A stretch of 64,000 nucleotides of DNA. Source: a virus (Duplodnaviria > Caudoviricetes). A program made the translations under genes and the position numbers. The notes under the pieces were generated by a model. That model was not told the origin of the DNA. It saw only the letters and a program-made list of their open reading frames with translations, and did no database searches. Of the stretch, positions 2,699-63,156 are shown in pieces. The stretch lies in the IMG/VR virus record IMGVR_UViG_3300033273_000833, positions 64,001-128,000 of that record; one strand, 5' to 3'. Position 1 is the stretch's first letter, and each line of letters starts with the position of its first letter.

Positions 2699-3062
2699 GG
2701 GCGTGTACTGGATTCGATTTAAATTGGATTAGTATACTGCAAGTAGGAGTTGCATCTGGCTCCTCAAAAAGGTGCAAACAATTACATGGCAACAAAAACC
2801 GTGTTAAAGCTTTCGGCCTTAAAGCTAAAAAGCTTGCCCTAGCAGCTTAGTTCTGCTACCTCGTAACCTTTGACGCAGATAAAAGGATTACGGGGCCATT
2901 AATCTGCAAAACAGAAAAAGTTTTCTTGCTTCACAAACTGCAAATAATTGAAACAAGAAGTTGGATGTTAATATCATAACTGTAAAAAAAATTAACTAAA
3001 CTTGTAGGCGTATATCTACAGAAAATTTAAAGACGCGGGTTCGACTCCCGCCACGTCCACCA
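2699..3062 (+). ncRNA. ssrA: tmRNA (364 nt); tag (A)GNKNRVKAFGLKAKKLALAA* at 2788..2850
   Basis: 5' GGGCGTG pairs with 3' CACGTCC-A-CCA including a G3.U wobble (Ala identity); GGATTCGA D-loop; GCGGGTTCGACTCCCGC T-arm; internal ORF ending LALAA-TAG. Confidence 0.95.
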
Positions 3063-6847: not shown

Positions 6848-7521
6848 AACTTGTGGAGGTTAAAAAGTTGTGGATATTTTTCATGCATAATTGTTAAGAC
6901 CATTTCTTCATCATATATAATGAAATTATTATCAACAAATTGTAGGCATTCTATATATTTCTTTGTAAATTCAGGAATTATGTGTCTTGGGAGTTTTATA
7001 ACTTGAGCCAATATCTTTATGGGTGGTAATGTATTTTTTAGTAAACCTTTATATGGTTTATTTGGGAAGTTGTCTGATTTTGCATATTGATTGATGTAAC
7101 ACTTATTGCTATCACTGGAGGTTATTGACTGTAAATTTCTTGTCTTCACGCAATCAACCCACATTAAATAATCAGCATCTGTATAGTCTAAAATTTTTTC
7201 AAAAAGAAGAATTTTGCTTGTCCATATTGTAGCTAACTTTAAAAAAGCATTGGATTTAACGTGCCTCCCAAATTTGAAATAAACTGCATCTCGTGATTTG
7301 CAAAAATTAGTTAAGTTTTTAAGGTACGGCAAACTTGGAAGATTATTAAATTCCAAATCAATTTTATTGGAGAAGCCTACAACCTGATCTTGCGAACATA
7401 TAAAATAATCTAAATTTTTGTTTCGAGCATGTTTTATATGACCTTGTCTGTTTGAAAATTTTGGATTGTTTTCTACATGCCAGTAGGCGGAAAAGGTTGT
7501 TGTTTTTTTCATATTGATCAT
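6844..7521 (-). CDS. HtrL/WlaTC-like glycosyltransferase
   Basis: IWTSKILL...DADYLMWVD...DEEMVLTIMHEKYPQLF. Confidence 0.55.
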   Translation of the reverse strand: MINMKKTTTFSAYWHVENNPKFSNRQGHIKHARNKNLDYFICSQDQVVGFSNKIDLEFNNLPSLPYLKNLTNFCKSRDAVYFKFGRHVKSNAFLKLATIWTSKILLFEKILDYTDADYLMWVDCVKTRNLQSITSSDSNKCYINQYAKSDNFPNKPYKGLLKNTLPPIKILAQVIKLPRHIIPEFTKKYIECLQFVDNNFIIYDEEMVLTIMHEKYPQLFNLHKL

Positions 7522-7526
7522 AATTA

Positions 7527-7688
7527 CTATTCTCCAAATTTGTAACCGAAATACTCAATGTGCGTACTACCCCCATATGGGTCTCCGTTGTACCCCGTGT
7601 CCGATCTTCCGAAGACAGCCTCCTCGACTGATTCTCCGCCACATTTTGCAAAATGCACAAATATAATTTTTTGTTTATGACAAATCAC
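7527..7688 (-). pseudogene. internally deleted sulfotransferase (53 aa, GTG start), absent from the ORF track
   Basis: Translates MICHKQKIIFVHFAKCGGESVEEAVFGRSDTGYNGDPYGGSTHIEYFGYKFGE*: N- and C-termini of the neighbouring sulfotransferases fused in frame. Confidence 0.8.
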
Positions 7689-7690
7689 TA

Positions 7691-8452
7691 TTATCTATGT
7701 TTGCGGTTTCCTAAGCCTGTAATATATTTCCTGTTTTTCTGTATATACAGATTATCATATATCCCTTTGGATTTGGAGATAACAGTGTTTTTATTATAAA
7801 TCCCAGCAATTCCGCTAAACGAGGATATTCCAGAAGGAAATAATATGTCGCATAATATCATGTCATTGATTGCAGTTAGCTCTGGTGTATTGCGATCATA
7901 TACATTTACTCTCATTCCATGAGTGTTAAGCTCCCTTAAATTTATATTTCCGTCAGTATGTATATTTATTGATAAGGGGGGATTTATGTAGTAGTGGATA
8001 TAATCTAAAATATTTTTTAGGTCTTCAGTAGAGCAAGCTCTATATCTAACTGGTTTACAGCCTTTATATTCCTCATTAGCAGTATCTCCTCTTCGCACAT
8101 GTATACAGATATTGGTCTGATTAACTTGTTGAAGAGTGTTTTCTAGAGGGGTGTAGTTTTTAATGATTGATTGCATAAATTTGCTACTAAAATCAGCAAA
8201 TAAGCCACGTTTGATAATTGGAGTATAATTAGCTTCACCGCTAAAGATGGTGATCTTATTTAATTCTTTCTCACAAATGTTATGAAATTTAGAGCCTAGG
8301 TTAAAGACAGACTCGTATGGATCCTCGAGTGGTGTGTGTATATATTCGAAGCCTTCTTGTTTAGCAAAGTAAGCGGTCCATAGTCTGCTATAAATTTGCA
8401 TACCAATCCTATCTGTTTTTTGACAGGTGATATATTTTTTTGCTTTTCTCAT
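7691..8452 (-). CDS. GT11/NodZ-like fucosyltransferase-like protein
   Basis: DRIGMQI at the N-terminus; ICIHVRRGD; MILCDILF..SSFS. Confidence 0.6.
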   Translation of the reverse strand: MRKAKKYITCQKTDRIGMQIYSRLWTAYFAKQEGFEYIHTPLEDPYESVFNLGSKFHNICEKELNKITIFSGEANYTPIIKRGLFADFSSKFMQSIIKNYTPLENTLQQVNQTNICIHVRRGDTANEEYKGCKPVRYRACSTEDLKNILDYIHYYINPPLSINIHTDGNINLRELNTHGMRVNVYDRNTPELTAINDMILCDILFPSGISSFSGIAGIYNKNTVISKSKGIYDNLYIQKNRKYITGLGNRKHR

Positions 8453-8516
8453 TCAGTTAGTAATGTTTGCAAGTTATTTAAGCTGACGAATTCAATATTC
8501 TGGTTGTGGAATAAAT

Positions 8517-9122
8517 TTAATCTCCAAATTCATAATTAAAATACTCAATGTCTTTTGCATATTTTTCTGCAACTATTTGCTTCGTTTCTTCATCGTAATA
8601 TTCGGTGTAGTGTTTTTTGTTTCTCTTGTTCATATGTGGCAATTTCAATCCTTTCATATTCAAGTAATTACACACACACATAAAATTATTTTCAAAATTT
8701 TCAAATCTACCAACAAAATCAACAGCTATATTACCTTCATTATCTTTCAAGAAATCATATTGAGCAACAGAGTGAGATGGATCAAGGTGTATGGGCGATA
8801 GTAGAAACTTTTTTAAGCTTTGTTTTTTTGGTCCGCCGAAATAAAAATAATCTGATATGGCCCTGTCCCATGGGTTTCTAACAAAAGCAAAAGAAAAATA
8901 ATAATTCTTTAATTGTGGGTGAATTTTATAAACCTCACTGATTGTAAGGTGTTGAAGATATTTTCCTGTATACTCATCCCTGCCAAGCAATAATTGCTTG
9001 TCGCAAAAATTATTTGGGAATTTTTTTTTGTCCCATAAATTATAACCAAATGCAGTTTCAATACTAGAACCGCCGCACTTGGGTATATGAATGAAGATAA
9101 ATTTATGCTTATGGCTTATCAT
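8517..9122 (-). CDS. Sulfotransferase (Sulfotransfer_2 family)
   Basis: FIFIHIPKCGGSS (5'-PSB loop), FAFVRNPWDRAIS (3'-PB), DFVGRFENF, YAKDIEYFNY. Confidence 0.9.
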   Translation of the reverse strand: MISHKHKFIFIHIPKCGGSSIETAFGYNLWDKKKFPNNFCDKQLLLGRDEYTGKYLQHLTISEVYKIHPQLKNYYFSFAFVRNPWDRAISDYFYFGGPKKQSLKKFLLSPIHLDPSHSVAQYDFLKDNEGNIAVDFVGRFENFENNFMCVCNYLNMKGLKLPHMNKRNKKHYTEYYDEETKQIVAEKYAKDIEYFNYEFGD

Positions 9123-9142
9123 TGTACTGAATAATATACACC

Positions 9143-9784
9143 TTATTTTAACCAGCTTCCATTCCAGTGGTGAACCGCATAAGCTTCAGGATGCGTTTTG
9201 GAAAAATCTTCTTCCCTACGAAACTTTTCTTGCCAATAGTAAGGGTATACAGTTTTCTTAAGAGAATCGCGACCATCTGGCATTCCTATTTCGTGTCCTA
9301 ATTTTTCGGTTATGTATGCTGGTCCATATTTATAATCAGAGTTTTCTTTATGGCCATGAGATTTTTTTCTCGAAGGTAGTCCGTCTATCAAGCGTTTTAC
9401 ATCTCTATTATGCTTGGAGGCTCCAAAAAAAGCTCCGCATATTTTTTTATGTTCTTGATGAAATAAAACAATTTCTTTTTGTTCAAAGAGAGGATTTATA
9501 TTTTTTAAGCATTCAAAGTCGGTATCAATATACAATCCTCCAAACTGATAAAGGATTTCAAACCTTAAGATATCAGATTTTTCAGAAAAATTTTCGCAAC
9601 TCTCTAGAATTTCAGGGTAGGTAATTTTTAAATTATCTTTTATTTTTTTATCGTCCCAAAGAATATGTATCCATTCGGGGTTTTTACTTTTCCATGTACC
9701 TTGCCAGTATAACTCTTGTTTTGATAATGAACTTTCGCCCATATGTATTTGATGAAATATTTTTGGTATTATTGAATTTCTCAT
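9143..9784 (-). CDS. GT32 (OCH1-like, DXD) glycosyltransferase
   Basis: IPKIFHQI..SDILRFEILYQFGGLYIDTDFECLK..GPAY..YAVHHWNGSW. Confidence 0.9.
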   Translation of the reverse strand: MRNSIIPKIFHQIHMGESSLSKQELYWQGTWKSKNPEWIHILWDDKKIKDNLKITYPEILESCENFSEKSDILRFEILYQFGGLYIDTDFECLKNINPLFEQKEIVLFHQEHKKICGAFFGASKHNRDVKRLIDGLPSRKKSHGHKENSDYKYGPAYITEKLGHEIGMPDGRDSLKKTVYPYYWQEKFRREEDFSKTHPEAYAVHHWNGSWLK

Positions 9785-9786
9785 TT

Positions 9787-10371
9787 TTATTCTCCAAATT
9801 TATACCCAAAATACTCAATGTCCTTTGCGTATTTTTCCGCAACAAGTTGACGAGTTTCATCATCGTAATATTTTGTGTAATGGGTGGTTTCTGTTTTGTA
9901 ATTGTGTGGTAGTGTTTTTCCAGAAATACCTATATTTCTACAAACATTATTGAAGTCTTCGTGTAAATTTTCAAATCTTCCTATAAAATCCATTTGTTCA
10001 AGTGGTTTTAATATTTTCATGTAATCGTATCTGTGATATGGATCTCCTACATTGCTACTAAAAAATTTTTTTAAAAAACATTTAAAAGTTGTTCCGTGAT
10101 AAAATTTTTTGACTTTTTTTAGTGGGTATTTGTGTGTTGAATTTGTAAACCATTTAAACTCTGAAACCATTTTATCGTAAGGGTTTCTTACAAACGCAAA
10201 CTTATAATAATTTTTATACTTATCCAACTTCAGAACCTCTGCATGGGTCGTGTGAGTGTGACCATTAAAAAAGAATTCAAAATCTTGCAAGTATCTTTCC
10301 ATGCTTGTGCCCGCACACTTCGGTATATGAATAAATACAGTTTTATGTTTATCACTTATCATTTTTATCAA
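9787..10371 (-). CDS. Sulfotransferase (Sulfotransfer_2 family)
   Basis: VFIHIPKCAGTS, FAFVRNPYDKMVS, DFIGRFENL, YAKDIEYFGY. Confidence 0.9.
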   Translation of the reverse strand: MIKMISDKHKTVFIHIPKCAGTSMERYLQDFEFFFNGHTHTTHAEVLKLDKYKNYYKFAFVRNPYDKMVSEFKWFTNSTHKYPLKKVKKFYHGTTFKCFLKKFFSSNVGDPYHRYDYMKILKPLEQMDFIGRFENLHEDFNNVCRNIGISGKTLPHNYKTETTHYTKYYDDETRQLVAEKYAKDIEYFGYKFGE

Positions 10372-11183
10372 ATTTTGTTTTCTTTCTTCATAAGAGTTTC
10401 GTCCTTTACCTCTGGATGGTCACTGCTTAATAAATGTTGCAATGTATAATCTGAATACCAATTATTTAATTTTATTTTTTTTTCACAGTTTTCTTTGGAT
10501 ATTATTCTATAATGGTAGCACAACAAAAATCCAGTCTCAATATCTACCTCACGTAAATTATCATAAAACGGATTTAATTCACTTGGTTGGTTGCCAACTC
10601 CGTCGCGAATTTGCTCTGGAGTTCCCATGTGTTCACATGGATGATGGTCTTTTATCTTTGTAAAATATGTTGGTTTAAAAATACATTTAACTTCAATTTT
10701 TTCATAACGACATCTAAACTTGTGAATTTTGTGTGGATGTTTTTTATCATGATTCCACCTATAAGTTATTTCATTTAAAATGCTTTTTGGATTTTTTTTC
10801 AAGGAATTGCAAGACATCATCACCCAAGGTACTTTTATGCAATGGGCGTCCTTGAAAGTTGTTTGTAATTCATCCCTAATAGTTTTATTGAGATTTTTCT
10901 TTGTAACTATAAACTCATCAATGTCCACATATATTACCCACTCGTAATTATCCTTAAGTTTATCCACCCAATTTAAAATATAATTGTCCTTTGTAATTTC
11001 CTTTTCAAAGAAAATGTTTATGTTTTCTTTATTTAACAATTCATCATATATGGATTTATCTTCGGAATCGTCATCTATTATATTAATTTCGTCAACTCCT
11101 TGACTTAGATAATGATTGCAAAACTCTGCAACAAAAAACTCATCTTTACAACGAGCTATTAATCCTAAAAATTTTTTGTGCAT
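10368..11183 (-). CDS. GT2-like/GT92-like glycosyltransferase
   Basis: LIARCKDE..VAEFCNHY..GVDEINIIDDDSED..WVIYVDIDEF..KCIFKP..YHYR. Confidence 0.8.
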   Translation of the reverse strand: MHKKFLGLIARCKDEFFVAEFCNHYLSQGVDEINIIDDDSEDKSIYDELLNKENINIFFEKEITKDNYILNWVDKLKDNYEWVIYVDIDEFIVTKKNLNKTIRDELQTTFKDAHCIKVPWVMMSCNSLKKNPKSILNEITYRWNHDKKHPHKIHKFRCRYEKIEVKCIFKPTYFTKIKDHHPCEHMGTPEQIRDGVGNQPSELNPFYDNLREVDIETGFLLCYHYRIISKENCEKKIKLNNWYSDYTLQHLLSSDHPEVKDETLMKKENKI

Positions 11184-11189
11184 TGACTC

Positions 11190-11993
11190 TTATTCAGGTC
11201 TTTTGCCTAAAGGTTTTCCATCTTGACCAATTTCTCCAGCCCTAATTTTGGTTGCAGAAACATTTTGAAGCTCTTTACTTAATTCAAGCTGCTCAATGTT
11301 ATATCCTACGCCTCTACCATAAAATACATCTGTAATATTTGGAAGCTCAACAACTTTAATTTTATTCCCAAACTCAATGCATGCAGAATGAATTTCTGCT
11401 TTAACTTTTTCAAAATTATATGGATTCTTTTCGTCAATTCCGCCGACATCTCTTAAAGCAATGCAGCATTGCCCAGTTCTTTTAATCGCTTCAGCAACTA
11501 ATGTTTTATGGCCAACATGAAAAGGTTGATACCTCCCAATTAATAAAGCTGTTGGAGCTTGATTATCCCAGGATTCTGTTTCATTTAATTTATTCAATAC
11601 TCTTTCAACCCATTCTTCTGGAGATCCGTCAGTTAGTCTTACGTCGTAATTCAAAGGTCTTTCAAACATTTTATTAGTGTCTTCGTATCTACCTTCCATA
11701 ATCCTATCGACCCATACAACAAAATCAGCAGCAAATGCTTTTCTTGTTTCTTGGGTAGGGCATACAAAATCGGCGACAGAGTAACCTCCGCCCATTGAAG
11801 ACCAAGAACATAGTTTACCCATTCTTTCGGCATGCTTAATTCTATCTTCTTCCGAAAACCCTAGCTCTGAATATATATCTTGCCTAACGGCATCAGCGTT
11901 AAACCAGGCTGCGTTAATTTTTTTTACTAAAATCTCAGCCAACGTTGTTTTGCCAGATCCTGGGAGCCCCATAATCAAAATTTTTCTTTTCAT
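11190..11993 (-). CDS. cysC: Adenylyl-sulfate kinase fused to a C-terminal HxGH nucleotidyltransferase domain
   Basis: GLPGSGKTT..NADAVR..LGFSEEDR..VADFVCP (APS kinase); GRYQPFHVGH..NPY..VSATKIR (NadM/Sat-type nucleotidyltransferase). Confidence 0.85.
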   Translation of the reverse strand: MKRKILIMGLPGSGKTTLAEILVKKINAAWFNADAVRQDIYSELGFSEEDRIKHAERMGKLCSWSSMGGGYSVADFVCPTQETRKAFAADFVVWVDRIMEGRYEDTNKMFERPLNYDVRLTDGSPEEWVERVLNKLNETESWDNQAPTALLIGRYQPFHVGHKTLVAEAIKRTGQCCIALRDVGGIDEKNPYNFEKVKAEIHSACIEFGNKIKVVELPNITDVFYGRGVGYNIEQLELSKELQNVSATKIRAGEIGQDGKPLGKRPE

Positions 11994-12015
11994 ATCTCTG
12001 TTTACACGCTTTTTT

Positions 12016-12345
12016 TTATTTTATCTTCTTATTTATTAAACATGCTAGACTAGGCACGGAAAACATACTAAAGCCAGCAAAAATCATATTTAAATTAAAA
12101 AACCAACAACAAAACAAAGAAGCAAGCAAAGACAACCAAGTGCCATAACATAAGGGACAGCTCAATAGTTCTCCCAGCTTACCCCAATTATCAATTATAT
12201 AATCATGCAAATCATCTAATGTATATATTTTTTCTTTTATAAACAATGACAATATATATACTTTTAAATTAGTATACTCCAATACGGCAATAATATTAGA
12301 AACAAACAAAATGCAAGCTAAATAAATTAATAAATAATTAATCAT
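12016..12345 (-). CDS. membrane protein with CPLC motif (DUF1360-like)
   Basis: Likely start MINYLL at 12345; two or three hydrophobic segments; LLSCPLCYGTWLSL. Confidence 0.55.
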   Translation of the reverse strand: MINYLLIYLACILFVSNIIAVLEYTNLKVYILSLFIKEKIYTLDDLHDYIIDNWGKLGELLSCPLCYGTWLSLLASLFCCWFFNLNMIFAGFSMFSVPSLACLINKKIK

Positions 12346-12574
12346 CTTGAATGCGAGGAAGAATGAACGATGTGTATTTCCTACGCACACTAGCTTTTCT
12401 GCACGAAGAACATCCTCCAGGTTTATTCACTTCTGCCAAGTAATCTTTTTTCATTTGCTGACAACCATCAAAGTTTATTTCTTGACAAGTTTGCTCGGGC
12501 GTTTTATTTAAATCCATAAATATTCTTATGAGATTCATTTGGGCTGGTGTTTTTGGATTCATTTTTCTTGACAA
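12338..12574 (-). CDS. small Cys-containing hypothetical protein
   Basis: GGCSSC motif; start may be 12562. Confidence 0.55.
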   Translation of the reverse strand: MSRKMNPKTPAQMNLIRIFMDLNKTPEQTCQEINFDGCQQMKKDYLAEVNKPGGCSSCRKASVRRKYTSFILPRIQDD

Positions 12575-12596
12575 ATTTGATTACATATATTATACT
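12568..12596 (+). promoter_or_regulatory. sigma70 promoter (leaderless)
   Basis: TTGACA-17-TATACT; ATG at 12603. Confidence 0.85.
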
Positions 12597-12602
12597 TATA
12601 AT

Positions 12603-13142
12603 ATGAAAAATATTCTAGAAAAAACTAAAACTTATCTGGTTGGCCACATGCAATACATTAGTGGGAGGAACTGGCGAGAAGAAGTTACTCAAAAGCTTTC
12701 TGATATTAACATTACATGCTTCGACCCTTATAAAAAACCCTTTATTAAAGATGTCGAAGAAGATGAGGTCTCAAGACAAGAAATGGAAACTTGGATGAAA
12801 ACCAAGCAGTACGACAGAGTAACGGAAAGAATGAAAATGGTAAGAGCTTATGACCTAAATTTAGTTGATCGTAGCGATTTTATCATCGCTCATCTAGTTC
12901 CTAGCGTTGCATCTTGGGGTAGTGCCGAAGAAATTGTTACTGCGGTAAGAATGAAAAAACCTATCTTTATCAGCATGGAAGGCGGTAAGTCCCAAACTCC
13001 ACTCTGGATGCTAGGAATGCTTCCTCATAAATACATTTACAATTCAGTAGAAGAAATAGTAGATATGCTTTTTGCTATCAATGAAGGGTCAAAAACTATA
13101 GACTCAGATCGCTGGCGCCTATTAAGACATGAATTTAGATAG
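12603..13142 (+). CDS. nucleoside 2-deoxyribosyltransferase-like protein
   Basis: YLVGHM..WREEV..FDPY..DLNLVDRSDFIIA..SWGSAEEIVTA..KKPI; start reassigned to MKNILEK at the promoter-defined ATG. Confidence 0.65.
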   Translation: MKNILEKTKTYLVGHMQYISGRNWREEVTQKLSDINITCFDPYKKPFIKDVEEDEVSRQEMETWMKTKQYDRVTERMKMVRAYDLNLVDRSDFIIAHLVPSVASWGSAEEIVTAVRMKKPIFISMEGGKSQTPLWMLGMLPHKYIYNSVEEIVDMLFAINEGSKTIDSDRWRLLRHEFR

Positions 13143-13763: not shown

Positions 13764-13984
13764 TGAAAGAAGTTTATCTTAGAGGAATTTATTCTCAATA
13801 TGTCGGATTAAGAGATCAAAAAATTGCAGACTTGAATGTCATGCTTAATTCTCCTGTTGGAGTCGGAGAGCACGGGGATTTAAGTGAGACAATTAAAAAA
13901 ATTATAGAAGAAATTGATAAGTACGATTCTCTTATTTCCACATTGAACAATTTAATTCCTAAAGAAGAAGATAAGAGTGAGTAA
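13763..13984 (+). CDS. hypothetical protein
   Basis: MKEVYLRG..LNSPVGVGEHGDL..; start reassigned via the TAATG overlap. Confidence 0.7.
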   Translation: MKEVYLRGIYSQYVGLRDQKIADLNVMLNSPVGVGEHGDLSETIKKIIEEIDKYDSLISTLNNLIPKEEDKSE

Positions 13985-14942
13985 AAGTTTAAAATACTCA
14001 GATATTTGCTTGATTCCTAATTATAGCGAATGTCACTCTAGATCAGATTGCGATACATCAGTATCTTTATTTGATAAAAAATTTAATCTACCTATCATTC
14101 CAGCCAATATGAAGTCTGTAATTGATATGGACTTAGCTAAATGGATGAGTGATAATCAATATTTTTATGTAATGCATCGCTTTAATCGCGATTTAGCTGA
14201 AGATGTTGCTAACGCTCAAGAATGGAATAATATTTCATTTAGCGTCGGGGTTAAGATGGAATGCAAGATCGCAATACAAAAAATTAAGAAGCGAAACCAC
14301 AAGGTCGATTTTTTAACAATTGATATTGCTCACGGACATTGTTTAAGAATGAAAACAATGATTAACTTTATCAGGAAACATTTGCCTGATACGAAAATTA
14401 TAGCTGGCAATGTCGCAACTCCTCAGGCAGTTAGAGATTTATCCTCTTGGGGCGCTGATGTCGTTAAGGTTGGAGTAGGTCAAGGTTCTCCTTGTACAAC
14501 TAAAGATAAAACTGGCTTCACTATGCCAATGTTTAGTTGCGTAAAAACTTGCTCTAAGCAGTATTCTGACGACCTTGAGGAGGAAACAAGTATTCCAATC
14601 ATTGCAGATGGAGGTATAGGTAGCAATGGAGATATCGCAAAAGCTCTTGTAGCTGGAGCAACAATGACTATGGCAGGAGGTTTATTTGCGGCTTGCTCTG
14701 ATAGCCCCGCATGCCCTAGCTTAATAGGAGGAGTATCTCACAAATCTTATTTTGGCTCAGCGAGTGCGGAGAATAAAGGGCATCGCAATCACGTAGAAGG
14801 CAAACTAAATCACATCTTATGCAACAATATGACCTACGAACGAAAGCTAAATGAAATCAAACAAGACTTACAAAGCGCCATATCATATGCAGGAGGCCAA
14901 GATCTAAGCGCATTTAAACACGTACAGTACACAGAACAATGA
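13977..14942 (+). CDS. guaC: GMP reductase
   Basis: PIIPANM, IDIAHGH, IAGNVATP, KVGVGQGSPCTT, IIADGGI..GDIAKAL, VEGK. Confidence 0.93.
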   Translation: MSKSLKYSDICLIPNYSECHSRSDCDTSVSLFDKKFNLPIIPANMKSVIDMDLAKWMSDNQYFYVMHRFNRDLAEDVANAQEWNNISFSVGVKMECKIAIQKIKKRNHKVDFLTIDIAHGHCLRMKTMINFIRKHLPDTKIIAGNVATPQAVRDLSSWGADVVKVGVGQGSPCTTKDKTGFTMPMFSCVKTCSKQYSDDLEEETSIPIIADGGIGSNGDIAKALVAGATMTMAGGLFAACSDSPACPSLIGGVSHKSYFGSASAENKGHRNHVEGKLNHILCNNMTYERKLNEIKQDLQSAISYAGGQDLSAFKHVQYTEQ

Positions 14943-40262: not shown

Positions 40263-42533
40263 ATGAAAATTCTAACTATTCTATTATTGTCATCAATTTT
40301 CTGCTTTGGTGATGTTCTTTATTTTAATAACGGAAAAGACCTAAAAGGCGATATTATTGAAGCGAACGCGACACACGCATTAATTAAAAGATCAAGCGAC
40401 TTGCAGTTATTTAGAATCGCTATCGATTCTTTAACAGAAGACAATCGGGCGTATATTAAAAACAATTTTGCACCCAGCCATGAAGCTCTACCTAAGTTCA
40501 ATAAACCCTTGTCTGATAAAGAGTTAACTACCCACTCCAAATACATTGATAGTTTAATTGAAACAAAATTAAGATCATACAATCTTAGGTCGAATAAAGA
40601 AGTTGATGATGCCACTTTTTTGCGCAGATCTTATTTAAAAATTATCGGCAGAACACCATCATTAACCGAAGTAGACTCCTTTTTAAATAGCAGAGAAAAT
40701 AATAAAAGATCTAAATTAATTGATCAATTACTAGGCAGCGAAGGCTATGTAAGCCATTGGTTTAATTTTTGGGCAGATATATTAAGAATAAAAGATCGAC
40801 TGAATAATAGAATATCTGGAGTGCCATACAAAAATTATGTAAAAGATTTTATATCTAATAATAGGCCTTACGATGAATGGGTAAGAGAGATGCTTTCCTC
40901 TTCTGGCCCATTATGGATAAAAGGCAATGAAGGAGTTAGTTATTTTGCTCGAGATGTAAATATGCCTCTTGACAGCATGGCTAATACAGTCCGAGTTTTT
41001 TTAGGTACTAGCCTTGAATGCGCTCAGTGCCATGATCACCCTTTTGATCGTTGGACACAAAAACAATTTTATGAAATGGCAGCATTTACGAGTGGGTCAA
41101 CCAATTTAAGAATAAAGAGTCCAGATAATTTAACTCAGTTAAACAGGCTAGTGAGGGACGAAAGAAAAAAACTAGAAGATTCAGATCAGCCTCAAAAATC
41201 AAGACAATTATCAAATGCTGTCAGAGATATCCAAGATATTCTGCAAACTGGTTTAACTAGTTTAGGAAATGGTAAGATAAATTTACCGAAAGATTATCAA
41301 TATAACAATGCAAAACCAAATGAAGTTTTATTAGGTAAAACAATTTTTGGAAAAGAAATCGATATCAAAACTAAAGCTCCTGACGCTGGTTCTAGAGAGA
41401 TTTACGCTAATTGGTTGGCTTCAGATTCTAACCCAAGATTTACCGCTGTAATTGTAAATCGTTTATGGAAAGAAGTGTTTGGGCTTGCCTTAATTGAACC
41501 TCTGGATAATATGTTCGACGATACTCTCGCAACTGATACAAAACTTCAGTTACATTTGGAAAAAGTTATGGTTGCATTAGATTATGATTTAAAAGAATTT
41601 TTGAGGATATTATATAACACAAAGACTTTTCAAAGACAATCTGTAGTTCGAGATGTAATACCTAAAGACAATAAAGATCAGTCTATGCCTGTAGATGTAA
41701 AATGGATCATAGCTGGACCAAATGTAGAAAAGCAATCTCAAGGAGCAATTCCATATTTCTATCAAGGGCCAATACTCGAAAGAATGAGTGGCGAGCAAAT
41801 CTGGGACTCTTTAGTCAACTTAACCTTTAATGATATAGACTCTAGAAAATTAGAGCAAAACACAAAAGGTTACCAGAATTACGAAAATTTTTCCGAAATG
41901 ACTGGAGAAGAATTGTTTGCAGACATAATGGCTAAAATTAATAAAACAGAAAAGCCAAAAATAGAGAAGAAGACTAAGTTTTCTGAACCTATCAACACCG
42001 ACTGCCCCATAAAGCCTGGGAGGGCAATTGATCCAACATTATTAGCTCTAAACGAAAACGGAGAAACTCTTGCGTTTTGTTGCGAATCTTGCGTTGATAA
42101 ATATAAATCCCAGCAGAAAGCTAGAGAACAAGAGTATAAGCAGAATTTTGTTAAAGATAGAAACTCTGTCAGAGCCTCTGAACTGCCTTCCCCTGCTCCG
42201 ATTGGTCACTTAATCCGAGAGTTTGGAGGTTCGGATAGAGAGCAGATAGAAAATGCGCATAAAAGCGCCTCTGCAACACAAGTATTAAATTTACTCAATG
42301 GGTTTGTAGAAACTAGATTATTAAAAAATAAAAACTTTGAAATTATTAAAGCAATTCAATCTCAAAAATCATTAAATGATAAAATAAAAGTTGGATATAA
42401 ATACATACTAAATAGAGAGCCTGACACTAAAGAGTTAAGAATTTTTTCTGACAATTTAAAAAACGCAAAAGAACCTTATAAAGAAATAATATGGACGCTA
42501 ATCAATACTCATGAATTCATGTTTATTAAATAA
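40263..42533 (+). CDS. DUF1549/DUF1553 (PSCyt2/PSD1) protein with a CxxCH motif and a YHS-like insert
   Basis: Signal peptide; FLRRSYL.IIGRTP, RPYDEWVREML, FLGTSLECAQCHDHPFDRWTQ..FY, NPRF..VIVNRLW..FG.ALIEP, WTLINTHEF. Confidence 0.92.
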   Translation: MKILTILLLSSIFCFGDVLYFNNGKDLKGDIIEANATHALIKRSSDLQLFRIAIDSLTEDNRAYIKNNFAPSHEALPKFNKPLSDKELTTHSKYIDSLIETKLRSYNLRSNKEVDDATFLRRSYLKIIGRTPSLTEVDSFLNSRENNKRSKLIDQLLGSEGYVSHWFNFWADILRIKDRLNNRISGVPYKNYVKDFISNNRPYDEWVREMLSSSGPLWIKGNEGVSYFARDVNMPLDSMANTVRVFLGTSLECAQCHDHPFDRWTQKQFYEMAAFTSGSTNLRIKSPDNLTQLNRLVRDERKKLEDSDQPQKSRQLSNAVRDIQDILQTGLTSLGNGKINLPKDYQYNNAKPNEVLLGKTIFGKEIDIKTKAPDAGSREIYANWLASDSNPRFTAVIVNRLWKEVFGLALIEPLDNMFDDTLATDTKLQLHLEKVMVALDYDLKEFLRILYNTKTFQRQSVVRDVIPKDNKDQSMPVDVKWIIAGPNVEKQSQGAIPYFYQGPILERMSGEQIWDSLVNLTFNDIDSRKLEQNTKGYQNYENFSEMTGEELFADIMAKINKTEKPKIEKKTKFSEPINTDCPIKPGRAIDPTLLALNENGETLAFCCESCVDKYKSQQKAREQEYKQNFVKDRNSVRASELPSPAPIGHLIREFGGSDREQIENAHKSASATQVLNLLNGFVETRLLKNKNFEIIKAIQSQKSLNDKIKVGYKYILNREPDTKELRIFSDNLKNAKEPYKEIIWTLINTHEFMFIK

Positions 42534-42895
42534 TCCCATTTCTTATATTTAAATATATAAATCATATTGCTTTTAATATAAATCCACCCCAACTTTTCTG
42601 CATAAAAATACCCTTTTTTGTTGGGCATATTATAAACCCATCCTAATTTTTTTGAATATATCCAATCATTGCTTATTGATTTTTGATAAGTTCCATATAC
42701 CCTGCCAAGCCCCTTCATATCGAACCATATAGACTTAGGTTTTTTCTGGCATTTAGCCATCCATTCGCCAATATCTAAAGGTTCTCTATATTTAGCTTTT
42801 TTTTTACACCAATCACAATCATCCAGAAAATCATCTAATTCAACCCTAGCTCCTGTACAAACGCAAATCATTACAAAAATAAAGAAAAACCTCAC
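42509..42895 (-). CDS. secreted/membrane protein with Trp-rich WxYxxxLGWxY repeats
   Basis: CDWC; WIYSKKLGWVY, YFYAEKLGWIY, IYIFKYKKW; GTG start. Confidence 0.6.
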   Translation of the reverse strand: MRFFFIFVMICVCTGARVELDDFLDDCDWCKKKAKYREPLDIGEWMAKCQKKPKSIWFDMKGLGRVYGTYQKSISNDWIYSKKLGWVYNMPNKKGYFYAEKLGWIYIKSNMIYIFKYKKWDYLINMNS

Positions 42896-42950
42896 ATTTA
42901 TGTATACACAAATTGTTTGATTTTTTAAAAAATGTGTATATAATATTATT

Positions 42951-44243
42951 ATGAACTTAAATACAATAGACGAATTAGGAAGAAGAGAATTTATAGCTCA
43001 TGCCGCCAGAGCATGTTTTGGAGTAGGGTTAATGCCGATGGCGGGGGCATACATACATAATAGTGTTAGCGCTTTACAGCCTGGAGCTAGAGTTCCAACA
43101 GCCAGACACGTTATTTATTTAAATATGGCAGGGGCAATGTCTCATCTGGACACATTTGGCCCGAAACCCGATGCTCCTGATATCCAAGGCCCAACTCAGT
43201 CTATTTCTACAAGTGCAGACGGTATTATTTTATCAGAAAATTTACCCTTAACCGCTCAACACATGCATAATGGCTCTATTATTAAAACAATGGTTACGAG
43301 TCAAGGCGCGCATGAGCAAGCAAGCTACCTAATGCACACAAGCTATCTTAAAAGAGGCACTATTGTACACCCAACTTTTGGTAGCTGGGTTTCAAAACTT
43401 TCAGGATCAATCAATAGAACGATTCCAAGTAATATAAAAATCGGCGGAGGCGGAGGTGGAGCTGGATTTTTAGAGTCTAAATACGGAGCACTTCCCATCA
43501 ATAATCCTTCATCAGGTTTAGCTAATAGTAAGATGGCTTCATACTTAGATCATGAGCATTTTCAGAGCAGAATATCTATTGCAGAACAGTTAAACGAAAA
43601 TTTCTCCACAGAGTTTCCTCAAAAGCAAGTTAGAGCTTATGGTGACCTCTATAAAGACGCCATTAAATTAATGAATAGCAATGATCTTAATGCGTTCGAT
43701 ATAACCCAAGAAGCTGAGTCAACAAGTTCTCTCTACGGACCAACTAATTTTGGTAAAGGCTGCCTACTAGCAAGAAGGCTAGTGGAGCATGGAGTAAGAT
43801 ATGTTGAAGTCACAAGAGGAGGATGGGACACTCATGACAATAATTTTGAAAGAGTAGCGGCTAATTGCGCTGATATAGACAAGGCCTTAAGTGGGCTACT
43901 TATAGACTTAGATAGAAGAGGTCTGCTATCAGAAACTCTAGTTGTTCTAACTTCAGAATTTGGACGCACTCCAAACATTAACGGCAGAGACGGCAGAGAT
44001 CACTGGCCTTACTGCTTCACAGCGTTCCTAGCAGGAGGCGGAGTCAAAGAAGGCTTTAGTTACGGAGAGACAGATAAAACTGGCAGATCCCCTACGGAAG
44101 GCAAACCAATTAAGCCTGAAGATCTGAATGCTACAATTGCTCATACGCTAGGCTTACCACTAAATGACTATCAGTATTCGCCGTCAGGAAGGCCTTTTAC
44201 CATAGCTCATAAAGGCGAGCCTTTATTTGATATTTTGGCTTGA
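42951..44243 (+). CDS. DUF1501 family protein with a Tat signal
   Basis: GRREFI Tat motif; VIYLNMAGAMSHLDTFGPK, CLLARRLVEHGVRYVEV..GGWDTH, SEFGRTP, RDHWP. Confidence 0.93.
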   Translation: MNLNTIDELGRREFIAHAARACFGVGLMPMAGAYIHNSVSALQPGARVPTARHVIYLNMAGAMSHLDTFGPKPDAPDIQGPTQSISTSADGIILSENLPLTAQHMHNGSIIKTMVTSQGAHEQASYLMHTSYLKRGTIVHPTFGSWVSKLSGSINRTIPSNIKIGGGGGGAGFLESKYGALPINNPSSGLANSKMASYLDHEHFQSRISIAEQLNENFSTEFPQKQVRAYGDLYKDAIKLMNSNDLNAFDITQEAESTSSLYGPTNFGKGCLLARRLVEHGVRYVEVTRGGWDTHDNNFERVAANCADIDKALSGLLIDLDRRGLLSETLVVLTSEFGRTPNINGRDGRDHWPYCFTAFLAGGGVKEGFSYGETDKTGRSPTEGKPIKPEDLNATIAHTLGLPLNDYQYSPSGRPFTIAHKGEPLFDILA

Positions 44244-48786: not shown

Positions 48787-49290
48787 ATGAACTTATATAA
48801 CATTGCAAAACACTGTAATTCACCCGAAAAAGTATACGGAGTAGTTGAAATACCCAAAGACACAAACGTAAAGTATGAATATCGCCCTGATTTAGAAGCA
48901 TTTATTTATGATAGGAGCTTATTAAGCTCTATGGTTTATCCATCTAATTATGGCTTTATCCCTAGTACAAAAGCTGAAGACGGAGACGCCTTAGATGTGT
49001 TGATTTATAATGGAACTCCTATTGACAGAGCTACTATAGTAGAGTGTAAAATAATTGGTGTATTAGACATGGAAGACGAAGGGCAAAAAGATTACAAAGT
49101 TTTAGTAACTCCTGTTTCTCATGTTAAAAAATATCGAGGTCTTGAGGACATTGACCCTCATTTTTTAAATATATGTAAAAATTTCTTTTCTCATTACAAA
49201 GACTTAAATGGAAAAAAGGTAGAAGTTTTTGAATGGCATGATAGTGATTTTGCTAAAAATATAGTCGAAAAAAGTTATATCAAATATTAG
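48787..49290 (+). CDS. ppa: inorganic pyrophosphatase (family I)
   Basis: VEIPK..KYE..DR..YPSNYGFIP.T.AEDGDALDV..MEDEG..DYK. Confidence 0.95.
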   Translation: MNLYNIAKHCNSPEKVYGVVEIPKDTNVKYEYRPDLEAFIYDRSLLSSMVYPSNYGFIPSTKAEDGDALDVLIYNGTPIDRATIVECKIIGVLDMEDEGQKDYKVLVTPVSHVKKYRGLEDIDPHFLNICKNFFSHYKDLNGKKVEVFEWHDSDFAKNIVEKSYIKY

Positions 49291-62736: not shown

Positions 62737-63156
62737 ATGAAAATCGGAATTACATTCTCAACATTTGACTTGCTTCATGCAGGTCATAATTTAATGCTAA
62801 AGCAAGCAAAGTCTGTTTGTGATTATCTTATTTGTGGTCTCCATGTCGATCCTCAGATTGAGCGTCCAAAAAAAAATAAGCCTGTTCAGAGTTTGGTTGA
62901 AAGATATATTCAACTATCTTCTGTTTCTTATGTTGATGAAATCATTCCATATAATCTCGAAAAAGATTTACATGATATTTTGTTAGGTTACCCAATCAAT
63001 GTCAGAATTATTGGCTCGGATTATAAAGATGTAGAATTTTCGGGAAAAGATATTTGTCAAGCAAAAGGTATAGAAATTTATTACAACGATAGATTCCATA
63101 ACTTTTCAAGCACAGAATTAAGGCAGAGGATAGCCACTAGAGAAAATGCGAAATAA
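62737..63156 (+). CDS. glycerol-3-phosphate cytidylyltransferase-like (TagD-like) nucleotidyltransferase
   Basis: TFDLLHAGH..LICGL.VDP..KPVQS..ER..VDEIIPY..GSDY..FSSTELR. Confidence 0.85.
   Translation: MKIGITFSTFDLLHAGHNLMLKQAKSVCDYLICGLHVDPQIERPKKNKPVQSLVERYIQLSSVSYVDEIIPYNLEKDLHDILLGYPINVRIIGSDYKDVEFSGKDICQAKGIEIYYNDRFHNFSSTELRQRIATRENAK

Follow-up and report, generated by a model that had tools for sequence, protein, structure and literature searches.

A kinase-nucleotidyltransferase fusion of an uncultured marine phage as a candidate minimal PAPS synthase with a NadM-like domain

Two kinds of enzyme, Sat and CysDN, are generally taken to account for sulfate activation. A gene of an uncultured marine phage raises the question of whether a third and very small type exists. 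The window analysed here is the whole stretch of 64,000 nucleotides that corresponds to positions 64,001 to 128,000 of IMG/VR record IMGVR_UViG_3300033273_000833, and the complete genome (203,067 bp, complete according to CheckV) has a G+C content of about 32%. At window positions 11190..11993 on the minus strand, an ATG-initiated open reading frame (ORF) encodes a protein of 267 aa, designated P0001, in which a domain related to adenosine 5'-phosphosulfate (APS) kinases is followed by a small nucleotidyltransferase (NT) domain with an HxGH motif. A sequence-only reading of the window had described the gene as such a fusion, and the ORF and two Pfam domain matches bear this out. What does this pair of domains produce? 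From sequence, predicted fold and gene context, we consider it likely that P0001 is a two-step synthase of 3'-phosphoadenosine 5'-phosphosulfate (PAPS), in which a NadM-derived domain outside the Sat and CysD families serves as minimal sulfurylase. With somewhat less assurance, we also favour a wider proposal: the NadM-derived domain of about 115 residues would represent a third class of ATP sulfurylase, which would be a near-core gene of SAR11 (164/201 genomes) filling the place of the missing sat in the AprBA route, would belong to a full assimilatory sulfate pathway in some SAR11-like lineages, and would have been spread by phages, with a trimmed APS kinase attached, as a self-contained PAPS synthase for glycan sulfation. 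We found no published description of such a kinase-NT sulfurylase enzyme in the literature, and P0001 probably performs a known function by means of an enzyme type that had not been recognised.

Domain structure of the fusion protein

The APS-kinase-like domain covers residues 1-140 (11574..11993, minus strand). The Pfam profile APS_kinase (PF01583) matched residues 5-86 with an E-value of 4.7e-12 and 46.6 bits (cut-off 21.1), and this match spans only positions 5-91 of the 152 profile positions. The closest solved relatives by sequence were APS kinases, with the enzyme of A. fulgidus (7yq0, E 2e-7) as best match and many more behind it. AlphaFold2 modelled the complete protein with a mean predicted local distance difference test score (pLDDT) of 93.9 and a predicted template modelling score (pTM) of 0.75, and Foldseek ranks 1-47 for this model were all occupied by chains or domains with the APS kinase fold (best E 5.7e-9; template modelling scores by target 0.6-0.77).

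The P-loop GLPGSGKT (residues 9-16; 11946..11969, minus strand) contains K15, and the putative APS-binding block NADAVR...LGFSEEDR (11841..11900, minus strand), which was placed by motif, contains D34, R37, F46, and R51. Across 58 aligned relatives, the most distant at 33% identity, K15 and R37 were invariant, D34, F46, R51, and P79 were conserved in at least 90% of the sequences, and T16 and the stretch V77-C78-P79 were likewise conserved. For the CysC kinase of M. tuberculosis, D480 has been assigned to the ribose 2'-OH, R483 and R497 to the phosphosulfate, F492 to stacking on the adenine, and I523/S524 to a backbone site (PMC4373884). Placed by motif, D34, R37, F46, and R51 of P0001 are the counterparts of D480, R483, F492, and R497, and V77-C78-P79 corresponds to the I523/S524 site. 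Thus, P0001 shares with the CysC-type APS kinases (M. tuberculosis, 4bzp; A. fulgidus, 7yq0) the P-loop, the (D/N)xDxxR, LGFSxxDR, and (I/V)(S/C)P blocks and the fold. In contrast, the CysC lid with K562, F576, and R559 gives way in P0001 to a short GR(Y/F)xDTNxxFExP segment; the Pfam and PDB alignments of the kinase half end near residue 86-92, and this family motif takes the place of the lid. Judged from these alignments, the N-terminal domain is APS-kinase-like with the substrate site kept but not the full family architecture, and catalysis is predicted.

The NT domain (residues 141-256; 11226..11573, minus strand) is a minimal HxGH nucleotidyltransferase and our candidate for a non-canonical ATP sulfurylase. 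The Pfam profile CTP_transf_like (PF01467) matched from residue 151 onward (E 1.5e-5; 25.6 bits, cut-off 21). The motifs quoted in the sequence-only reading are all present, namely the nucleotide-binding motif GRYQPFHVGH at residues 153-162 (11508..11537, minus strand), with G153, R154, Q156, H159, and H162 invariant, an NP motif at residues 190-191, and the second superfamily signature VSATKIR at residues 245-251 (11241..11261, minus strand), in which S246 is nearly invariant and R251 is invariant. R181 is also nearly invariant among the NT relatives. A YGRGVGY loop (family consensus YGRDVGY; 11301..11321, minus strand), with G226, R227, and G230 invariant, replaces a segment of about 33 residues (76-108) of the archaeal NMN adenylyltransferases (NMNATs; NMN, nicotinamide mononucleotide).

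When an NT profile built from 57 C-terminal domains was compared with the PDB, the best matches were the archaeal NMNAT MJ0541 (2.6e-11), Francisella NadM (2.9e-10), and other NMNATs, with weaker matches to NadR, phosphopantetheine adenylyltransferase (PPAT), and pantothenate synthetase. Structural alignment of the NT domain model (pLDDT 94.5) by VIA-align gave Z-scores of 10.7 for NadM and MJ0541, 10.5 for PPAT, and 9.1-9.4 for NadR. MJ0541 was aligned at residues 3-75 and 109-133 only. Its residues 76-108, which we take to be the nicotinamide/NMN-binding region, are reduced to about eight residues with YGR(D/G)VGY in the NT domain. With the NadM proteins and archaeal NMNATs (MJ0541, 1f9a; M. 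thermautotrophicus, 1ej2; the NadM-Nudix proteins of Francisella, 2qjt, and Synechocystis, 2qjo), the NT domain shares GRFQPFHxGH, the NP after strand 2, and SxTxIR. However, it lacks segment 76-108 and any counterpart of the C-terminal helices 134-168, it has neither a Nudix domain nor a NadV partner, and it stands in a gene context of sulfur metabolism instead of NAD metabolism. These comparisons indicate that the NT domain is a stripped NadM-type enzyme, with the apparatus for ATP binding and AMP transfer predicted to be intact and with a remodelled and much smaller acceptor side. Such a shrunken acceptor side would fit a small anion.

The domain combination of P0001 resembles that of the bifunctional PAPS synthases (human PAPSS1/2, 1x6v; Aquifex aeolicus Sat-APS kinase, 2gks; CysN/CysC fusions), which likewise consist of an APS kinase and an AMP-transferring domain of the HxxH/HIGH superfamily. 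As had been pointed out from the sequence, animal PAPSS has the same order as P0001, with the kinase preceding the (candidate) sulfurylase, and P0001 presumably supplies sulfotransferases with PAPS. The domain order matches, but the second domain is not a family-level homologue of the PAPSS sulfurylase: this half comprises about 115 aa instead of about 390 (267 aa vs. about 620 aa for the total protein), a PUA-like N-domain and a PF01747 match are lacking, NMNAT and not Sat is the nearer relative of the NT domain, and the kinase lid is shortened.

Gene neighbourhoods and distribution

P0001 heads a minus-strand run of glycan and sulfation genes. On the same strand follow a GT2/GT92-like gene (10368-11183), a Sulfotransfer_2 gene (9787..10371; PF03567, E 9.7e-19), a GT32-like gene (9143-9784), and a second Sulfotransfer_2 gene (8517..9122; PF03567, E 9.2e-19), and the run includes more glycosyltransferase-like genes. 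The two sulfotransferases, the presumed consumers of PAPS, are the only Sulfotransfer_2 genes of the 203-kb genome, and both are located less than 3 kb from P0001. Profile searches for Sat, CysD, and CysH yielded no match in this phage or in its three complete relatives. These three relatives carry seven, five, and 10 Sulfotransfer_2 genes, and in 14 bacterial genomes used as controls, no Sulfotransfer_2 match exceeded the cut-off of the family. The link to sulfation holds at the level of the phage genome though the local context varies.

In metagenomes, we found more than 7,000 relatives of P0001, which are marine and lie on contigs of up to 237 kb; the best 120 of them are 73-89% identical across 96-100% of P0001, and an exhaustive search added 2,482 further representatives. 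Judged from these sequences, P0001 is under selection as one unit. The kinase-NT fusion is also present in cultured phages of Xylella, Xanthomonas, Stenotrophomonas, and Clavibacter (about 38% identity), and Stenotrophomonas phage DLP6 carries one Sulfotransfer_2 gene. In a sample of 80 IMG/VR loci, the commonest neighbour was a 68-aa DUF2061 membrane protein, which lies directly downstream in 53 of the 80, and a Sulfotransfer_2-like gene was found within 8 kb in 22. A genome search detected no DUF2061 in the present phage. The local context is variable, and 73%-identical relatives are located among small early-type ORFs or beside a PSCyt2/PSD1 and DUF1501 pair. A 555-aa protein of Rhizobium sp. 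BK376 unites Sulfotransfer_2, kinase, and NT in one chain and is 52% identical to P0001 over the full P0001 length. Six proteins (P0122, P0183, P0191, P0197, P0212, P0215) join the kinase, or kinase plus NT, to a DUF4118 membrane domain located on one side or the other. The contigs with a stand-alone NT or a DUF4118 fusion (P0227, P0245, P0122) are shorter than 2.3 kb and their contexts are uninformative. With the DUF4118 fusions and the DUF2061 neighbour, a membrane partner is a recurring theme around the kinase-NT pair.

Profile searches of genome contigs yielded 26 bacterial loci with a full-length NT, and ORF calling succeeded in 21 of them. In all 21, the NT was fused to or adjoined a kinase, in either order. 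These loci come from Alphaproteobacteria, Flavobacteriaceae, Halobacteriovorax, Peribacteria, and other Patescibacteria. A sulfotransferase gene abuts the kinase-NT module in three loci (L099, L117, and L119). In a metagenome-assembled genome (MAG) of Flavobacteriaceae (L110, 1716-3844), the gene order is TauE, kinase, NT, a 335-aa protein consisting of the pyruvate kinase barrel only, Sulfotransfer_3, and an ABC transporter, so that the sulfotransferase lies two genes downstream of the module. The pyruvate-kinase-like protein of this locus may regenerate ATP for sulfate activation. Neither Sat nor CysD was detected in 19 of the 24 module-bearing genomes; Sat was found in one (Synechococcus) and CysD in four.

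A tight operon of a SAR11-like Pelagibacteraceae MAG (L108) comprises a TP_methylase (cysG-like), CysI, CysH, DUF2061, the kinase, and the NT, and both Sat and CysD are absent from this genome. Its CysH bears a CC...CxxC motif, which we take to be the mark of APS-reductase-type enzymes. Another small genome has the same components, divided between two contigs.

For Pelagibacterales, we carried out a census of 201 genomes with at least 80% completeness. The mini-NT (alignment A3) was found in 164 of them, AprA (TIGR02061) in 167, Sat (PF01747) in eight, and CysD (TIGR02039) in seven. NT and AprA co-occurred in 155 genomes, with nine carrying NT only, 12 AprA only, and 25 neither (odds ratio 36, Fisher p 1e-15), and CysD was present in 0/164 NT-positive genomes vs. 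7/37 NT-negative genomes (p 4e-6); these p-values ignore shared ancestry and hence overstate independence. The pattern agrees with the published SAR11 gene table, in which aprA, cysC, and cysQ are present and sat and cysDNHIJ are absent (PMC5069961).

The gene order at the apr genes points in the same direction. In two annotated SAR11 loci (L182 and L183), a TenA-like gene, NT, a 263-aa protein, AprB, AprA, a 116-aa protein, and TauE follow one another on one strand. The 263-aa protein has no Pfam match and is possibly AprM. In a third locus (L180), a convergent NT and kinase come after AprB, AprA, and the 116-aa gene, and in five further genomes, judged by coordinates, the NT lies within about 3.5 kb of aprA. 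For the sulfur oxidiser Allochromatium vinosum, a published study describes sat as co-transcribed with aprMBA (PMC3779200). By analogy, the NT fills the place of sat upstream of aprB-aprA in L182 and L183. In seven genomes with an apr-linked NT (two annotated and five judged from coordinates), the search for an APS kinase match gave none in five, a sub-threshold match in one, and a canonical full-length kinase elsewhere in the genome in one; in three control genomes, the APS kinase match fell on the kinase beside the NT. The NT thus stands beside apr genes in genomes without an APS kinase match and therefore has an APS-linked role of its own.

Weighing of alternative functions

Several observations weigh against a PAPS synthase with a sulfurylase half. 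In sequence and fold, the NT domain is nearest to NMNAT, PPAT, and NadR. ATP sulfurylases scored lower in VIA-align (T. thermophilus 1v47, Z 8.8 over 113/116 residues; others 5.5-6.4), no ATP sulfurylase appeared at E<=10 when the NT profile was compared with the PDB, and there was none among the Foldseek top 50 for the NT domain model. An hhalign comparison with a cyanobacterial Sat profile aligned only 25 columns near HxxH with a probability of 11%, this profile being shallow (its homologue set consisted of Sat sequences above 90% identity). In P0001 and in the SAR11-like L108 protein, the GRD-like loop has G in place of D. On the side of the kinase, the lid falls about 15 residues short of that of solved APS kinases, P0001 lacks the full-length lid of about 30 residues with Lys, Phe, and Arg that closes over ATP/APS, and N stands in place of the first D of DGD. 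Sat shows no exclusion in the Pelagibacterales census, occurring in six NT-positive and two NT-negative genomes. Most SAR11 genomes place a 136-aa kinase and a 124-aa NT in a glycine-betaine/one-carbon cluster with no obvious sulfur link; in L175 (5747-15316, also L176-L178), this cluster consists of a Rieske oxygenase, homocysteine S-methyltransferase-like and dimethylglycine-dehydrogenase-like proteins, a methyltransferase, an M24 creatinase-like protein, the kinase, the NT, a HalD-like iron/2-oxoglutarate enzyme, an enoyl-CoA hydratase, and a CoA-binding protein. Finally, a NADAR gene adjoins the kinase-NT gene in Xylella, Xanthomonas, and Stenotrophomonas (Salvovirus-type) phages. The betaine-cluster and NADAR contexts keep rival explanations alive without outweighing the several APS-linked contexts.

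These results also define the position of the NT domain among known enzymes. PF01747 did not match P0001 at E<=1, and direct kinship with Sat was rejected on the basis of this search together with the profile comparison with the PDB, Foldseek, and hhalign. The earlier view that the C-terminal domain is NadM-like stands, and VIA-align supports it as well; the domain is not Sat-like. Foldseek had been named as a check on the sequence-only reading; it confirmed the kinase fold and brought up no sulfurylase among its top 50 for the NT domain. The same reading had placed ATP sulfurylase in the HxxH superfamily; the 1v47 match of the predicted model, which scores below NMNAT and PPAT, reflects this shared superfamily only. 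With Sat-type ATP sulfurylases (PF01747; 1v47; yeast, 1j70), the NT domain has in common the superfamily fold and the motif order HxxH, GRD-type loop, SxT..R, but it is much smaller and has no detectable family-level sequence relationship, the Sat motifs QxRNPxHxxH and GRDHAG included. Affiliation with CysD is not indicated either, as PF01507 had no match in the whole phage genome and the NT fold differs. The only signal of PF01747 in the phage genome was a weak one (9.9 bits) on a stand-alone 139-aa cytidylyltransferase-like protein (62737-63156, plus strand), for which PF01467 gave a full-length match with E 3e-12.

An unlikely explanation is that the kinase half alone takes part in sulfate activation, drawing on host APS made by CysDN, Sat, or AprBA, and that the NT domain is a regulator binding APS, PAPS, or ATP or adenylylates an unrelated small phosphate. 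The kinase half by itself would suffice to link the gene with sulfotransferases, there are relatives with the kinase only (some are fused to DUF4118, and Ralstonia jumbo phages have no more than the kinase), and the NT domain has no specific similarity to Sat. However, the HxGH and ISATxIR signatures are invariant, which argues against a purely regulatory relic. Further points against this explanation are the NT genes beside aprB-aprA without any APS kinase, the NT in the cysI-cysH operon of a genome lacking Sat and CysD, the confinement of CysD to NT-negative Pelagibacterales, and the 19/24 module-bearing genomes that have neither Sat nor CysD and thus no enzyme supplying APS.

Still less probable is that the pair makes another 3'-phosphorylated adenylyl compound, either by CoA-like chemistry (a PPAT-type transfer followed by 3'-phosphorylation) or in the form of an activated small phosphonate or phosphate for glycans. 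For the NT domain, PPAT is a match only slightly inferior to NMNAT (Z 10.5 vs. 10.7), the dephospho-CoA kinase reaction is also the phosphorylation of the 3'-OH of an adenylyl compound, the SAR11 pair stands beside an enoyl-CoA hydratase and a CoA-binding protein, and the kinase lid is unlike that of APS kinases. On the other hand, both arginines that hold the sulfate in CysC are retained, the recurrent partners (sulfotransferases, CysH/CysI, AprBA, TauE, DUF2061) are tied to sulfate or sulfite, and the drastically shortened acceptor half of the NT would accommodate a small anion more readily than phosphopantetheine.

As a further alternative, P0001 could be an NAD salvage enzyme of the NadR kind whose domains stand in the opposite order, combining a nicotinamide riboside kinase with an NMN adenylyltransferase to restore NAD during infection. 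This would match the GRxQPFHxGH signature of NadM, the best sequence and fold matches of the NT domain to NadM/NMNAT, and the fusion beside NADAR in the Salvovirus-type phages, a domain discussed in NAD/ADP-ribose conflicts whose phage copies can sit with NAD salvage genes (PMC9503650), but we rejected it as highly improbable, as the kinase is APS-kinase-like in all top 47 fold matches and not NadR-like, neither NadV (PF04095) nor NADAR (PF08719) had a match in the 203-kb phage genome, NMNAT residues 76-108 and 134-168 are without counterpart, and the sulfur-metabolism contexts have no NAD logic. In Xylella phage Bacata (L001, 4978-6008), the NADAR gene (E 9e-27) precedes the fusion and is itself preceded by a 192-aa ORF, in which Sulfotransfer_4 matched below threshold (E 9e-4 and 6.6e-5). 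Bacata has sub-threshold sulfotransferase matches only, and the match on the 192-aa ORF, which has no PDB relative, is no more than a hint.

Proposed reaction and features around the gene

For P0001 as a PAPS synthase, we propose the following sequence of reactions. The NT domain would transfer AMP from ATP to sulfate, forming APS and pyrophosphate, and the fused kinase would then phosphorylate the 3'-OH of APS to PAPS, as its conserved APS- and ATP-binding residues and its fold suggest. PAPS would feed the two sulfotransferases, which may act on the glycans of the neighbouring glycosyltransferases, so that a sulfated glycan would be formed during infection. The fusion would ease the hand-over of APS, an unstable and costly intermediate, and would pull the unfavourable first step forward. 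In SAR11, the NT would run in reverse and drain APS from AprBA. In our view, the NT descends from NadM/archaeal NMNATs and would be a functional analogue of Sat and CysD that belongs to neither family; its sulfurylase activity, if present, would have arisen independently from an NMNAT-like ancestor. For the suggestion made in the sequence-only reading that a NadM-like domain was repurposed as sulfurylase, the gene contexts and the distribution thus provide backing, and the activity itself is a prediction.

The same reading had named the phage inorganic pyrophosphatase as a factor that could pull the reaction forward. The ppa gene (48787..49290, plus strand) encodes a genuine pyrophosphatase (PF00719, E 1.9e-46) and is compatible with this role, and the enzyme possibly helps to pull the first step, but the gene is unlinked and lies 37 kb from P0001. 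A pyrophosphatase gene is present in all four related marine phages (this one and three relatives); this is not independent evidence because the four phages are related to one another and the gene is not linked to the fusion.

Genome annotations of SAR11, the most abundant marine bacteria, list neither sat nor cysDN, and models of the ocean sulfur cycle are shaped by this absence (PMC5069961). If our assignment is true, a very small third type of sulfurylase would alter how genomes are interpreted for sulfur metabolism: in SAR11, the AprBA pathway would become complete, some SAR11-like lineages may use sulfate, and many phages annotated with 'cysC' only would carry the whole PAPS pathway, which would point to sulfated glycans on phage or host surfaces as a widespread feature. 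A PAPS synthase of 267 aa would also serve as a handy tool for enzymatic sulfation.

The start codon of P0001 is preceded by GCGTGTAAACAGAGAT (window 11994-12018, minus strand) and lies 22 nt past the stop codon of a small membrane-protein ORF, for which only a weak DUF1360 match was found. Just upstream of the glycan and sulfation island, ARAGORN identified a transfer-messenger RNA gene with the tag peptide GNKNRVKAFGLKAKKLALAA (window 2699-3062, plus strand). The flank of the island on the opposite strand carries a nucleoside 2-deoxyribosyltransferase-like gene (12528-13142, plus strand), which stays below the Pfam cut-offs, and a gene of the GMP-reductase/IMPDH family (13977-14942, plus strand; E 1.2e-55). 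A PSCyt2/PSD1 (DUF1549/DUF1553) and DUF1501 pair at window 40263-44243 is located 28 kb from P0001 in this genome. The same pair directly adjoins the kinase-NT gene in three relatives, namely L004 (73% identical; 6864-10234) and L009 and L010 (87-88% identical; L010 8868-10145), and a functional tie of this pair to sulfate is conceivable.

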